Source: a virus
Taxonomy: Duplodnaviria > Caudoviricetes
Direction: 5' to 3' (one strand)
Virus record (IMG/VR): IMGVR_UViG_3300015082_000002
Coordinates: 1 to 48,701 of that record
Length of the DNA: 48,701 bases
Shown: positions 1 to 36,760 of the stretch, piece by piece
Numbering within the stretch: the stretch's first letter is position 1
How the letters are laid out: each line of letters begins with the position of its first letter
Translations under genes and position numbers: made by a program
The notes under the pieces: generated by a model
What the model saw: only the letters and a program-made list of their open reading frames with translations
The model's database searches: none
What the model was told of the DNA's origin: nothing

Positions 1-126
1 CCTGGAGAGGTTGGCCTTGGAGAGGTTGGCCCTGGAGAGGATGGCCTCCACGACCGCAGCTCGCACCGACGCCGCATCCTTGGCGACGTACAGCACCTTG
101 CCGTTGACTGACTTGATCTCGATCAT
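1..126 (-). CDS. Pentapeptide-repeat protein, 5' part (continues across the contig end into 48266-48701)
   Basis: ATG at 126 overlaps the upstream TGA (ATGA) after GAGGA. Reads MIEIKSVNGKVLYVAKDAASVRAAVVEAILSRANLSKANLSR and runs off the window in A(N/I)LSx repeats. Confidence 0.85.
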   Translation of the reverse strand, partial: MIEIKSVNGKVLYVAKDAASVRAAVVEAILSRANLSKANLSR

Positions 127-638
127 GCGGACAGTTCCTCTCGGATCAGGGCTCGGGCCGCGTTGGCTCGAGCGAGGACGGTGGGATGCGTCAGGCCCAG
201 GAGGGCGGCGGCTTCACGCAGCGCGGCTCCGCGCAGCTCGGTGAGGATGAAGGAGGCACGCTCGGGCTCGGCCAGGGCGCGGACGGCCCGGTCGAAGTCC
301 TGACCGAACGTGGCCATCTCGGGGGTGAGCGGTCGGCCCAGAGCCAGCTCGTCCAGGTCATGCGCGAGGCCCGAGGGCTCCTCGCTGAACCCAGCCTGGC
401 TGCGCCGGTCTGACTTGCGCCAGTGGTCAGCGAGCAGCGAGATGATGATACCCCGCGACTCATCGAACAGGCGGGCGCGGGGGTTGTCGGTGATGCCGTC
501 GCGGATCTGGTTGAGCAGCTTCTCGAACGCGGCCGAGGTGATCTCCTCGGCTAGCTCATGGCTCCCGGTGAGCCAGAGGACGCGGTCGTGAACCTCCTCG
601 GAATGGGCGCGGAAGATCGCGCCGGCAGAGTCGGCCAG
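123..638 (-). CDS. ECF-type sigma-70 factor (sigma2 + sigma4), probable CTG start
   Basis: Frame of ORF 123..317 stays open to a CTG at 638 behind TAGGAGGG. The extension has region-2-like HDRVLWLTGSHELAEEITSAAF; the C-terminus has region-4 HTH LAEPERASFILTELRGAALREAAALLGLTHPTVLARANAAR. Confidence 0.8.
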   Translation of the reverse strand: MADSAGAIFRAHSEEVHDRVLWLTGSHELAEEITSAAFEKLLNQIRDGITDNPRARLFDESRGIIISLLADHWRKSDRRSQAGFSEEPSGLAHDLDELALGRPLTPEMATFGQDFDRAVRALAEPERASFILTELRGAALREAAALLGLTHPTVLARANAARALIREELSA

Positions 639-7389: not shown

Positions 7390-7417
7390 AATATAGCCGC
7401 TGTACAGCTAGAGTCAA
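7390..7417 (-). promoter_or_regulatory. Leftward early sigma70-type promoter with an operator-like palindrome in the spacer
   Basis: TTGACT-16 nt-TATATT. Spacer holds GCTGTACAGC (7399-7408), with a second copy at 7445-7454. Confidence 0.75.
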
Positions 7418-7472
7418 TACGTAGTTTCTACTTGTTGTGCAGCCGCTGTACAGCTCGTGGCCCAGGCTCTCC

Positions 7473-7509
7473 GTGCGCGCGTAGTGCGCGCGTAGTGCGC
7501 GCGTAGTGC
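7473..7509. repeat. 11-bp tandem repeat GTGCGCGCGTA x3
   Basis: Direct reading. Confidence 0.9.
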
Positions 7510-8149
7510 CTGGCCGGGCAAGGGTGCCCAGCCGCGCCGATCACTGGGACGGCTGGGCACTGGGCACGGGGGACGACATCGGGGAGTGTTGGCATGCCAG
7601 GCAACGCACCTCGTCACTGTGCCCAAAGCCCTCGCTGTACCCTAAGATAGGTGTCAGGCTAGGCAACGTACACTCATGCCCTGCCCACTAGTTGCCTGCC
7701 CTGCCAACACTGCCCACGTTGCCCAGCCTGCCAACGCCGTGGGGCCTCCCTAGTTGTCCGCTGAGGCAACGGCCGGCCCCCTTGGGCCCGTGTGCGCACA
7801 GGGGGAAGGCCACCCATCACATGACTGCGCCTAAAGGCCCTGTGCAGGGCTTTCCTGCCCCGACTGTTGCCTGTTCTGGCTACATACGGGGCCGTGTTAT
7901 ACACCCGCCATGGCCCCCGAGGGGAACCCCGGCTCCAAGAGGTTCCCGATCTGGCACCGAGGGGGCCAGGGTCGACCCGGAAGGCGCGATGAGCGCCGCC
8001 ATTGGCGACGGTGGGGGCCGATTTCGGGTCGATTGGGGGGCGCCAAAGGGGCCACCGAAGGGGGCTTCGATGGCCAGCCGGCCTGGGGCTATCGGTGCCC
8101 CCCTCGAGATGCGCCGGCGGGGGCCGATTCGGCGGTTTGGAACCCTAGG

Positions 8150-8189
8150 GGGGTCAGGGGACAAGTCCCCTGCCCCAGTTGGACTAGAG
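8150..8189. repeat. Palindromic element GGGGTCAGGGGAC-AA-GTCCCCTGCCCC, related to 798-842
   Basis: Direct reading. Confidence 0.7.
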
Positions 8190-8360
8190 AATGGGCCCCT
8201 ACGGGGCCCTTAATAGGGAAAAACCGCGTACGCACGCGAGGGAGGGGCCGATTTGGCTCAGACAAGCCCTTCTTCCGCCCCGGCCGCCAGGCCGAGAGGG
8301 CGGGTTGCCAAGTTTCTCACCCCCAGCGGAATAAAAAGTGCCCCCCAGCGCGGTTTACTT

Positions 8361-8770
8361 AGTGCAGGACTCCTTTCGGCGGACGGTGGGGTGTCCTGCA
8401 ACTCATTCAGAACTGCGCTCAGCCCATAGACGGCATCGAGCGCGACAAGTCGGTGCTGCCGGGTCTCGGTGGCGCCGGTCAAGGCTGCAAAGGGAGTGTC
8501 AGATCCGGCTTCGGCCGCGCAGTGCCATCAATCCTTCTCCGGGGTCGCTAGGAGCTACGGGTGAACGACTGTCGGCAGCCTTCGGGCTGCTGGCGGGCGG
8601 GATCTCGCCGGCTCTGGCTTCGGTTGGGGTGCGGGAAGTGGGGCGCGGTTCATCCGGTTAGGCATGTTCGGTGTTCAGCGAGGCTCGGGCCGCAAGCTCG
8701 AGCAGGCGCGGATGCCGTGAACTGGCGGGTCTTAATGGCCGGCGACGTCGAAGTATGGCAGCACCGAACT
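8361..8770 (+). ncRNA. Large structured non-coding RNA candidate
   Basis: 11-bp closing helix 8450-8460/8757-8767; three cUUCGg hairpins and a GCAA-containing hairpin inside; G-U pairs favour the + strand; no credible ORF. Confidence 0.75.
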
Positions 8771-8776
8771 ACCCTC

Positions 8777-8848
8777 TGCGGGGTCGTCTAGCCGGTAGGA
8801 CAGTGGCCTCTGACGCCTCCAACGTAGGTTCGATCCCTACCCCCGCAG
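8777..8848 (+). tRNA. tRNA-Gln (CTG anticodon)
   Basis: Acceptor TGCGGGG/CCCCGCA, D-arm GTC/GAC, anticodon loop CTCTGAC, T-arm GTAGG-TTCGATC-CCTAC. One U-U mismatch in the anticodon stem; CCA not encoded. Confidence 0.9.
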
Positions 8849-8852
8849 CCCT

Positions 8853-8898
8853 TGGCGACCCTCGACCTGCCCCCCGGCGTCGGGGGTCGCCCATTTTT
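8853..8898 (+). terminator. Intrinsic terminator after the tRNA
   Basis: GGCGACCCTCGAC...GTCGGGGGTCGCC followed by ATTTTT. Confidence 0.75.
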
Positions 8899-8930
8899 CA
8901 TTGTCATCGCACGAACGAGAGGAGGCCGGT

Positions 8931-9308
8931 ATGCCCGGCTCGTACACTTCCGGCTCCGTCGCCACCACCGCGGTACTCGCCCAGGATCTCACTGTCTCCG
9001 AGGAGGAGTGGCTCACCGTGATCGCCGTCGCTGGCCCGACCGCCACGGCCGCGGGCGACATCTCCGTCGCAGTGCTCCCCTACCTGTCCGACCGCCCCGG
9101 AGCCTCGGGCCAGAACGCCCCGCTCGCTCCGGCCACGCTGCCCCTCGCAGTCACCACGCAGGAGCCCGGCACCGCCGCCGTCCTCGCCGCTGGCAAGGCG
9201 TACGTTCTCGCGCGCTACGCGGTCACCGGCCTGGACAAGGTTCAGGTGCAGGCCAAGAACAACAACGTCGGCACCCTGCCCGTCGAGATCAACGCCTTCT
9301 ACGGCTAG
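8931..9308 (+). CDS. Putative virion protein
   Basis: GGAGG + ATG 8931; beta-rich Ala/Val/Thr composition. Confidence 0.7.
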   Translation: MPGSYTSGSVATTAVLAQDLTVSEEEWLTVIAVAGPTATAAGDISVAVLPYLSDRPGASGQNAPLAPATLPLAVTTQEPGTAAVLAAGKAYVLARYAVTGLDKVQVQAKNNNVGTLPVEINAFYG

Positions 9309-9458
9309 ATGAACGTCCGAGTCCAGGGAGGCACCAACGCCGGCTGGCGTCGGGTGCTCAACCGCTCCAAGGCGAGCTACACATGCGAGAACTGCGGAGC
9401 GCGCAACCGCTACTACTGGGTGCGCTGCCCCGTCTGTTCACACCCGCGGCCCGAGTAG
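9309..9458 (+). CDS. Small zinc-ribbon protein (49 aa)
   Basis: YTCENCGARNRYYWVRCPVC. Confidence 0.65.
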   Translation: MNVRVQGGTNAGWRRVLNRSKASYTCENCGARNRYYWVRCPVCSHPRPE

Positions 9459-11414: not shown

Positions 11415-12938
11415 ATGGACTACCGCTCCCAGCTCGCCGGTGGCGACCACCGCGGCGACCTACTCGTAGACACCGCGTACCCGGAGGCGGTCAATGCCTT
11501 CCCGGTCAAGTTCTGGTGGTTCAACCAGCACGGGTACAAGCCGCATGTGTGGCAGGCGCTGTTCCACGGCGCCGCCATGAGCTACGGCGACGTCAAGCAG
11601 TTCCGGCACCTCGTGGCCGGACGCCGAGGCGGCAAGACCCTCAGCGCCGCATGGGAGGTCCTGTTCTACGCGCTCCACCCCTCCGAGTTCCACCGTGACG
11701 CGCATCAGGTCAGCAGCGAGAAGGCCCTCTGGATCTGGATCCTCACCAAGGACTTCCCGACCGGCTTCCCCGCGCTCACCACGCTCCTCGACGTCATGGC
11801 CCAGGCGGGCCTCGTCAAGGGCAAGGACTACTCGTACAACAAGGTCGAGCGCCGGATCGAGTTCACCGAGTCCGGCACCGTCATCCAGCTCAAGACCGCC
11901 GACGACCCGCAGTCCCTCCGCGGCGCCGGCCTGGACATCCTCTGGATTGACGAGGCCGCGTTCATCAAGGACGACGAGGCGTGGCTGGTCGTGGCCCCCG
12001 CGCTCGCGGACAAGGAAGGGCTCGTCATCACGACGACGACGCCCCACGGCAAGAACTGGTTTTGGCGCGAGTTTTTCGACGGCAAGGCGATGGACGACCC
12101 GCACCAGTTCCGCGTCGAGTACACGAGCATAGACTCGCCGTACTTCTCGAGACGCTCCTGGCAGTACTACCGCGAGCGGTACCACCCGATCATGTTCAAG
12201 CAGGAGTTCATGGCGGCGTTCGACGCCTTCACCGGCATCGCGCTCCACGGCGACTGGCTGAAGTACTACGTGACCGGGGGCGCCGACGCCAAGACCGACG
12301 ACGTCAGCCTGAAGCGGTACAAGGACGACGAGACCGGCGCCTACAAGCTCCGCATCTTCATCGGCGTCGACCCGGCCATCTCGCTGAGCGAGAGCGCCGA
12401 CCACTTCGCCATGGTCGCGGTGGGAGTCCCCGAGGACAACTCGATGGTCTTCCTGCTCGACGTCTTCGTCGGCCGGCTCGAGTTCCCCGACCAGATCGAC
12501 AAGCTCCGCGAGTGGTTCCTGAAGTGGCGCCCCGAGCGCATGGGTATCGAGGCCGTTGCCTACCAGCAGGCCCTGTACCAGATGGCCCAGCGCATGGACG
12601 GGATGCCCGCCGTGGTGCCCGTCTTCTCGAAGGGCAAGAAGAACGACCGTATCCTAGCGATGGCCCCGCTGTTCAAGATCGGCAAGGTCAGGATCGCGAA
12701 GACCCAGGGCGAGTTCATCGAGCAGTGGGTCAACTTCAACCCGAAGATCAGCAACCAGGAGGACGACATCCTGGACGCCACGGAGATCGCGCTCAGCGCA
12801 GCCGGGGTGCTCCTACCGATGATGCCGCACGCGGCGATCATCGAGGGTCGTCCCCGAACCATCCACCAAGAGGCCACCGCGCAGATCCGCGCTGGACGCC
12901 GGGGCAACTACGACCCCGAGCTGGGCTCAGAGAGCTAG
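11415..12938 (+). CDS. terL: Terminase large subunit
   Basis: Walker A GRRGGKT, Walker B LRGAGLDILWIDEAA, TTTP coupling motif, nuclease IGVDPA and DDILDA. Confidence 0.95.
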   Translation: MDYRSQLAGGDHRGDLLVDTAYPEAVNAFPVKFWWFNQHGYKPHVWQALFHGAAMSYGDVKQFRHLVAGRRGGKTLSAAWEVLFYALHPSEFHRDAHQVSSEKALWIWILTKDFPTGFPALTTLLDVMAQAGLVKGKDYSYNKVERRIEFTESGTVIQLKTADDPQSLRGAGLDILWIDEAAFIKDDEAWLVVAPALADKEGLVITTTTPHGKNWFWREFFDGKAMDDPHQFRVEYTSIDSPYFSRRSWQYYRERYHPIMFKQEFMAAFDAFTGIALHGDWLKYYVTGGADAKTDDVSLKRYKDDETGAYKLRIFIGVDPAISLSESADHFAMVAVGVPEDNSMVFLLDVFVGRLEFPDQIDKLREWFLKWRPERMGIEAVAYQQALYQMAQRMDGMPAVVPVFSKGKKNDRILAMAPLFKIGKVRIAKTQGEFIEQWVNFNPKISNQEDDILDATEIALSAAGVLLPMMPHAAIIEGRPRTIHQEATAQIRAGRRGNYDPELGSES

Positions 12939-35929: not shown

Positions 35930-36105
35930 GAGACCTCGCGCACCTCGACCAGGAAGCGGCGGACGGGCGCATCCTCGTCACGCCCCTGAAGCCCCCGGCG
36001 GACGGAGGCTTCATCGACGTCGAGGTGCTTGGCGATGAGGCGATTGGACATGCCCTGATCGCGCAGCGCCTCGTAGACCACTGGCGCGAACTTCGGCTTG
36101 CTCAA
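35926..36105 (-). CDS. Small HTH protein (59 aa, absent from ORF track)
   Basis: GGAGG + TTG; LRDQGMSNRLIAKHLDVDEASVRRGL. Confidence 0.75.
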   Translation of the reverse strand: MSKPKFAPVVYEALRDQGMSNRLIAKHLDVDEASVRRGLQGRDEDAPVRRFLVEVREVS

Positions 36106-36401
36106 TCCGTACCTCCGTTGGCGTAGTAGTGGGTCTCCTCGACGGCACGGCGGTACCGCTTCGAGACCGTGGACTGGCGTACCTGGAGGAGACGGGCCGT
36201 CTCCATCTGGGACAGGCCGATCAGGCCGTGCAGGAGAACCACCTCCCAGTACTCGTCCGGGAGCTTCTCCAGCGCGCTGTTGATGTCGGCCTGGAGAGCC
36301 AGCCAGCTCAGCCCCCGGCGGTTCGTATCGACCCGCTCGGTGACCAGTTGGTAGTTCTCCAGCAGAGCCTCCACCTCATCCAGGCTGTAGTTCTGCGTCA
36401 C
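36102..36401 (-). CDS. Sigma-70 region 4 domain protein
   Basis: ALEKLPDEYWEVVLLHGLIGLSQMETARLLQVRQSTVSKRYRRA; GTGA-coupled start. Confidence 0.8.
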   Translation of the reverse strand: MTQNYSLDEVEALLENYQLVTERVDTNRRGLSWLALQADINSALEKLPDEYWEVVLLHGLIGLSQMETARLLQVRQSTVSKRYRRAVEETHYYANGGTD

Positions 36402-36760
36402 ACTCCGCGGAAGTCGTCCAGGGGCAGGAGCGTCTCGTACGGGACGTGCTGCGAGCACGGCCCGACGTACTCACCCGTCACCGGGTCGACCTCGAGGTCG
36501 CGGCCCTGGTCGTCCGTGGCGCACGGGCGGGACGTCAAGCGGGACTGATGGGCCAGGAGCCGACACCAATCCTTCATGCGGTTCTCGATGTGCTCGGCGC
36601 TGGGGGTGACGCCCCGGCCCAGGGTCTGCCACACGTTGATGAGGCCCTCCTGGTTCAGGTCGTCGTACTCGGCGCTGACTCGCTTCGCCAGGGGGCTGTT
36701 CACCAGGCGGGCGGCGATGGAGTCGACCAGGCCGGCGTAAGCGCCGACCTGGTCGTTCAT
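36398..36760 (-). CDS. Sigma-70 region 2 domain protein
   Basis: YAGLVDSIAARL...EYDDLNQEGLINVWQ. Confidence 0.7.
   Translation of the reverse strand: MNDQVGAYAGLVDSIAARLVNSPLAKRVSAEYDDLNQEGLINVWQTLGRGVTPSAEHIENRMKDWCRLLAHQSRLTSRPCATDDQGRDLEVDPVTGEYVGPCSQHVPYETLLPLDDFRGV

Follow-up and report, generated by a model that had tools for sequence, protein, structure and literature searches.

A family of non-coding RNAs with a predicted Y-shaped fold, previously uncatalogued, beside tRNA genes in a clade of related phages

The stretch of DNA analyzed here, referred to as the window, is a virus record of 48.7 kb (48,701 nucleotides, 96% complete), which was met in the soil metagenome runs of one study. 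Its genome codes for a large terminase, a portal, a major head protein, an integrase, a primase-helicase, and a DNA polymerase. The nearest annotated capsid proteins belong to Arthrobacter phages (33% identity), and this likeness, together with the general features of those phages, suggests an actinobacterial host and presumably a podovirus-like build. The large terminase subunit (11415–12938, + strand; PHROG E 1.7e-33) has 685 homologues and served as the bait for related phages; the terminase pattern also matched four MAG contigs of unrelated taxa. On the − strand, overlapping ORFs at 36398–36760 and 36102–36458 carry a sigma-70 region-2-like match (E 7e-4) and a region-4 match (E 1e-8), which suggests a split or frameshifted phage sigma factor, and a further region-4 ORF lies close to the left end of the window (123–317, −).

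The locus under study lies between the end of the leftward genes and the start of the rightward virion genes, and all of its features lie on the + strand. It opens with a putative late-promoter region (8333–8363), in which a AAAAGTGCCC-like box and an AT-rich box, both recurring in relatives, stand before a leader hairpin (8363–8400); a scan gave no sigma-70 consensus on the + strand. A second hairpin (8414–8444), a 318-nt element (8450–8767), and a tRNA-Gln(CTG) 8 nt past it (8776–8851; called by ARAGORN, 54.9 bits with Rfam) follow, and the unit closes with a terminator-like hairpin and T run (8854–8898). A preliminary description had taken the interval 8361–8770 as one large, ornate RNA at the head of the packaging operon. 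The two leading hairpins, the tRNA-Gln, and the place at the head of the virion and packaging genes, abutting the tRNA, were all recovered as described, and the 318-nt RNA stands, while the leader and the second hairpin proved to be elements of their own. For the terminator proposed after the tRNA, a G+C-rich hairpin (8854–8891, −31.1 kcal/mol) followed by T5 is indeed present, and a terminator scan gave no call.

The leader hairpin is small, conserved, and an RNA element in its own right. Its 15-nt core (8375–8389) is invariant, its stem covaries, differing in sequence but still pairing, and, counting the window, it was seen in 11 distinct phage loci. It also occurs in loci without the large RNA (L275, L353, and L319, in our numbering of the loci), has no Rfam match, and could be an antitermination or protein-binding site; its pattern matched once in 401 genomes, at a site where the stem was absent. 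The 11-nt loop region of the second hairpin was met again in RNase P-like RNAs from L167/L279 and from L305, as well as in one unrelated locus, and the hairpin may be left over from a phage RNase P RNA helix whose gene was deleted. The first gene past the RNA unit is a 125-aa ORF (8931–9308) with no PHROG or Pfam match, whose relatives come after the RNA in L243, L307, and L317. It is followed by a 49-aa ORF (9308–9458) with a zinc-finger spacing that we take to resemble the RanBP2 type; a Pfam search gave no match for it. This zinc-finger ORF is present in several related phages, in three carriers of the RNA and in several non-carriers, and a role as dedicated partner of the RNA was rejected. 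Neither ORF tracks the RNA across relatives.

Folding of the 318 nt is more stable than expected by chance (none of 100 shuffles as good; z −2.97), with modest z-scores of −2.6 to −3.0. A perfect 11-bp helix (8450–8460/8757–8767; 12 bp counting a G-U) encloses them, as had been noticed before. With regards to the inner structure, the earlier drawing fared less well. The CGCAA hairpin is present (8683–8703, a GCAA tetraloop closed by C-G), and so is one UUCG hairpin at 8569–8596, whereas the two drawn near 8505 and at 8611–8630 give way to longer-range pairs in the family model presented below. The three nested long-range helices found no support. Forcing GTTCA/TGAAC and GGCAT/ATGCC costs 8.2 kcal/mol compared to the minimum free energy fold, and adding the third one (CTCGCC/GGCGGG core) raises this cost to 16.2 kcal/mol, while the family model costs 1.2 kcal/mol. 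In the latter, GGCAT (8661–8665) pairs with GTGTC (8496–8500), GAAC (8719–8722) with GTTC (8666–8669), and GGTCT (8728–8732) with AGGCT (8482–8486). The window copy accordingly has a closing stem, whose 5′ strand (8450–8488) pairs with 8725–8767 and carries a G-U/GA site and the motif M1 (8483–8486 with 8728–8731), a long arm (8496–8665) opened by the motif M2 (8496–8500/8661–8665), holding the motif M3 (8542–8546/8616–8620) and ending in a UUCG tip, and a side arm (8666–8722) ending in the GCAA tetraloop (8692–8695). A different M2 partner, 8643–8647, was dropped in favor of 8661–8665, which has an ensemble probability of 0.81 and the matching spacing.

Related phages were gathered via the terminase and via the leader hairpin, and duplicated records were counted once. 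The resulting family comprises 12 distinct full-length copies of about 300–346 nt, including the window, and one 3′ fragment at the end of L244/L276. In these related podovirus-like phages, every copy adjoins a tRNA, or an element resembling one, and precedes the virion genes. The copies in L243 and L245/L277 were recognized by the closing helix and a core length of 314 nt shared with the window, and further ones were recognized in L280, L296/L291, L307, L317, and L384. The L164 copy was found by a profile HMM, and those of L279/L167, L305, and L274 by inspection past the last tRNA of their arrays. These arrays, and that of L164, hold 17–26 tRNA genes just before the terminase. In a quick tree of 30 terminase rows, which does not include L384, all carriers fall within one 17-row clade (SH-aLRT 97). 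It holds 12 carriers (11 full, one fragment), a single non-carrier with a covered slot (L275), and four rows in which the slot is not covered or ambiguous (L285, L298, L300, and L316), so that the RNA is present in 12 of 13 rows with a covered slot. The L275 slot contains the leader hairpin and no RNA copy, and outside the clade no copy was seen in L175, L287, and L318. In the sister group (L353, L319), the same slot after the first tRNA contains shorter, end-paired multibranched RNAs of about 255–265 nt, which are not family members by descriptor or HMM. Folded stretches free of genes were also observed, in the tRNA slot or close to it, at L164:910–1224, L175:4300–4900, and the contig ends of L294/L316.

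Membership was examined with descriptors and with sequence profiles. A strict motif-and-spacing descriptor gave 20 matches in 392 loci (2.8 Mb), all in family loci. A descriptor of pairing and spacing recovered the window copy and ranked nine of the 12 copies close to the top of its 89 raw matches; its extra candidates in L352 and L173 look like coding or chance sequence. When a sequence-only HMM was applied in a leave-one-out fashion to eight copies, seven were recovered (E 2e-17 to 0.21), and the window copy was not recovered by the HMM of the other seven at E ≤ 10. Its membership is based on the closing helix, the 314-nt core shared with L243/L277, the spaced motifs, the side-arm loop, and the position. 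BLASTN against annotated phages and plasmids returned short chance matches only. Among viral contigs, 81 stretches with the closing-helix pattern lacked profile or BLAST support, and of 22 further ones only L247, identical to L243, was genuine. The sequence-only model, which has low sensitivity, matched weakly in seven genomes from a 151-genome sample of one phylum (E ≥ 5e-5, none supported; one match lies in the unpublished genome G092, on which no claim is based) and in none of 101 genomes of another such sample.

All 12 copies can fold as one three-way junction, at which a long and irregular closing stem meets a long arm and a short side arm. The folds were made under constraints on three short helices, with anchors picked by hand, and these constraints cost 0–1.8 kcal/mol in eight copies, 4.4 and 5.5 kcal/mol in two more, 9.1 kcal/mol in L274, and 12.5 kcal/mol in L305. 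A helix motif of G-C, a G-U wobble, and C-G occurs three times: in the closing stem (M1), at the junction (M2), and in the arm (M3). At the second position of M2, nine copies have G-U, the window has U-A, L164 has C-G, and L305 has U-G. As placed, M3 fails to pair in L305. M1 and M2 are 12–13 nt apart, and M2 and M3 44–50 and 45–48 nt; these spacings were set on eight copies and are kept in three of the four later ones, while L305 lies 1–2 nt outside. An invariant A stands on the 5′ side of the junction in all 12 copies. The freely varying part is the distal tip only (61–86 nt). The side arm measures 53–65 nt and has a clear GNRA loop in 7 of 12 copies and none in three. In most copies, a G-U stands beside GA/GA near the base of the stem. 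The window has TA on the 3′ side of this site; contigs from two soil runs, one of which may be the window's source, read G instead of T at 8754, and this G restores the family's GA. A pairing of GGUC with GAUC given by RNAalifold is broken in two of six copies, and the GGGUC/GGCUC helix, paired in 12/12 at four of five positions, was preferred to it. The conserved letters thus sit in helices at fixed distances, and the loops are generic (UUCG-like at the tip, GNRA in the side arm). Paired bases amount to 70–76%, G-U to 20–32% of pairs, and A to 10–15% of all bases. The longest unpaired run is 5–11 nt, and its place is not fixed. Since every copy has, under the model, exactly two hairpin loops and one junction, the modeled element is rod-like and not ornate in the sense in which the preliminary description had compared it with the large phage RNAs GOLLD and ROOL.

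The conservation statistics bear on the objection that there is no RNA gene and that G+C-rich DNA folds by chance or forms a DNA inverted repeat, for which the modest z-score of the window might speak. Pairwise identity among eight copies is 53–70%, compared to a shuffled baseline of 51%. Nevertheless, in the columns flanking M1 and M3, outside the anchor cores, 70 and 72 of 84 cells are paired, with 30 two-sided changes each, and 0 of 5000 column shuffles, which take no account of relatedness among copies, reach the observed pairing. In slid registers, the first eight copies pair in 17–25 of 56 cells, compared to 43 and 52 in register. The four later copies alone give a weaker signal of 27/28 (176 of 5000 shuffles) and 20/28 (34 of 5000). 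The sense strand folds 38–71 kcal/mol better than the antisense strand, and this asymmetry together with the high G-U share argues for selection on an RNA and not on a DNA palindrome. Stops close all + frames in eight of nine copies checked. With twelve syntenic copies, covarying flanks, this strong strand asymmetry, and a strict descriptor confined to family loci, the chance-fold explanation is largely refuted, and we are very confident that the RNA family exists.

It is also absent from the catalogs searched. Rfam at gathering thresholds reported the tRNA only, a search of 7400–9400 at E ≤ 10 gave no meaningful match, and eight related loci gave no family match at E ≤ 1. Rfam and ARAGORN found no known ribozyme and, in line with the preliminary description, no tmRNA, SRP RNA, group I or II intron, or RNase P RNA for the element. 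No description of the Y-shaped RNA was found in the literature searched, a search whose reach excluded most subscription journals; the accessible part of one viral RNA screen lists candidates of at most 151 nt (PMC10690425). Considering the missing Rfam match and the covariation across homologues, the earlier suggestion of a new structured RNA class can be upheld: this is a real phage RNA family, previously uncatalogued, whose Y architecture is simple yet tightly conserved.

The tRNA neighborhood is where the window departs from its relatives. It had been proposed that tRNA processing sets the 3′ end of the RNA. This does not hold as a family rule, because 11 of 12 copies come after a tRNA or tRNA-like element and the window alone precedes its tRNA. 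A T-arm and acceptor strand end 3–5 nt before the RNA in six of nine copies by script, and the same arrangement was seen by eye in L296 and L317. The L274 RNA directly follows the last tRNA, and those of L279 and L305 come after one or two small hairpins. In L277, L280, L296, L307, and L317, ARAGORN calls no tRNA in the direct neighbor; these elements have an acceptor stem and a T-arm, and some are without D or anticodon arm, as expected if they are kept as processing signals. The tRNA-Gln(CTG) is likewise the likely processing site in the window. By established tRNA biology, RNase P would free the 3′ end of the RNA there, and tRNA 3′ trimming the 5′ end in the other copies.

The position between leader and virion genes in all copies, and the fact that the RNA is the last element before the T run in L164, L279, L305, and L274, would also suit a cis-acting role, in which the RNA either protects an end of the tRNA and late transcript or serves its termination/antitermination. 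We consider this quite improbable, as the window, L296, L307, L317, and L384 have a separate terminator-like hairpin after it, RNA and tRNA stand in swapped order in the window, conservation extends to inner motifs lying 100 nt from the ends, and L275 has the leader without a copy of the RNA.

True RNase P RNA genes lie in the same tRNA unit of relatives. L305:7171–7430 (+) is a short RNase P RNA gene (RF00010, 60.4 bits, E 3e-17, below gathering), and RNase P-like RNAs also lie inside the tRNA arrays of L167/L279 and L274; in the literature searched, no paper on a phage RNase P RNA was found. As the Y-shaped RNA is large, structured, situated beside tRNAs, and similar in size to class A RNase P RNA, a ribozyme that cleaves itself, splices, or derives from RNase P was weighed. 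However, the Y-shaped RNA has no RF00010 match even below gathering, and both RNAs stand side by side in L305, L279, and L274, where the 3.4-kb search of L305 that picked up the diverged RNase P RNA gave no Rfam match for the Y-shaped copy. No Rfam ribozyme or intron matched at E ≤ 10, nor in relatives, and few unpaired bases are conserved. A ribozyme is therefore highly unlikely.

Large structured phage RNAs near tRNA genes with unknown function are already known from GOLLD and ROOL (PMC12286853, PMC5737381), so that the novelty lies in the family and fold class and not in the phage-beside-tRNA setting. According to the accessible parts of these reports, GOLLD is often longer than 800 nt (PMC12286853), ROOL averages 581 nt with six multistem junctions as well as three pseudoknots (PMC5737381), and both form cages via kissing loops and A-minor contacts (PMC12286853). 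The Y-shaped RNA, at about 300–346 nt, has one junction and matches neither the GOLLD model nor its conserved 3′ domain; it is about half the size of these two RNAs or less, has no kissing loops, and receives no Rfam score. The shared setting, the fixed geometry, the GNRA loop, and the G-U sites, which could make intermolecular contacts, might nevertheless indicate RNA-only oligomers formed by self-assembly. Against this stand the presence of only two hairpin loops, the A-poor composition, the three copies without GNRA, and the finding that no complementarity linking unpaired segments from different regions is seen in more than one of 12 copies, which leaves no recurrent pseudoknot or kissing potential. 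Self-assembly thus appears improbable.

The phi29 pRNA, a phage RNA with a three-way junction and interlocking loops, is part of a prohead motor. It resembles the Y-shaped RNA in its junction and in its proximity to packaging functions, and a virion or packaging-motor RNA would fit an element that heads the packaging genes and is present in nearly all covered slots of the terminase clade. The phage, however, possesses an ordinary large terminase and portal, which is another packaging system; the Y-shaped RNA is larger, has no Rfam match, and shows no recurring loop complementarity of the kind that interlocking loops would need; and the slot of L275 is without it. We judge a packaging role to be very unlikely.

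The 6S RNA is a hairpin of about 180–200 nt with a central open bubble. It and Ms1 are stable RNAs and, like the modeled Y-shaped RNA, mostly helical, and an analogue that binds the host RNA polymerase and shifts it toward phage promoters or reserves it in slow-growing hosts is a special case of protein binding, weighed here on its own. Ms1 is of similar size (about 300 nt; PMC9130861), and the CoRP RNA of Corynebacterium, a precedent for such an RNA flanked by tRNAs, binds polymerase and lies among tRNA-Gln/Glu genes (PMC11077062), both according to the accessible text; the phage itself codes for the sigma-70 region-2-like and region-4 ORFs. On the other hand, the Y-shaped RNA has no central bubble, its unpaired runs are short and shift from copy to copy, and there is no Rfam match to 6S RNA. 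RF02566 (Ms1) gave no match in the window; homology search misses distant Ms1 RNAs, as the available part of the Ms1 paper itself warns (PMC9130861). Two fetched Ms1 copies show a layout of 5′ hairpin, center, and 3′ hairpin, with 4–5 G-U in about 97 pairs and no profile match, and are without the long closing stem, the high G-U share, or the G-U motif. CoRP, as far as its accessible text and supplement go, is chromosomal, 516 nt long, and A-rich by eye, and its sequence bears no likeness to the Y-shaped RNA by eye. A polymerase-binding role is thus unlikely, too.

Helix-borne conserved letters, generic loops, the high share of paired bases, the lack of a bubble, and the absence of recurrent complementarity between regions fit a protein-binding rod better than a cage, a ribozyme, or a promoter mimic. 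Our preferred reading, to which we assign a probability of roughly 0.42, is that of a stable, tRNA-processed rod acting in trans by binding a host protein at its G-U motifs. The RNA would be transcribed together with the tRNA ahead of the virion genes from the putative late promoter, cut free by host tRNA processing (RNase P in the window, tRNA 3′ trimming elsewhere), and persist as a nuclease-resistant rod, on which the three spaced G-U helix motifs would present repeated sites to a host protein, either as a decoy or as a scaffold. A host factor is favored as the partner because no neighboring phage gene tested travels with the RNA. The binding itself is predicted from the modeled anatomy, and helix packing could be another use of these G-U motifs; the family, its conserved pairing and spacing, the tRNA adjacency, and the strand asymmetry are direct results of the comparison.

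Few large structured RNAs are known from bacteria and phages, and their biochemistry has often proved unusual. The present one is nearly fixed in its phage clade though its sequence has diverged almost to the level of random identity, and it is small and regular enough for transcription, probing, imaging, and use as bait. A bolder and more doubtful version of the protein-binding rod is a new class of tRNA-processed RNA effectors, in which a rigid Y with three G-U sites seizes a core host machine. If this were true, that machine would be RNA polymerase or an RNA-sensing defence protein, and the clade, in which almost every member keeps the effector, would also carry an RNase P RNA of its own and reduced tRNA-like elements for its release. 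The family would also show phages retaining degenerate tRNA-like elements as signals that release a non-coding RNA.
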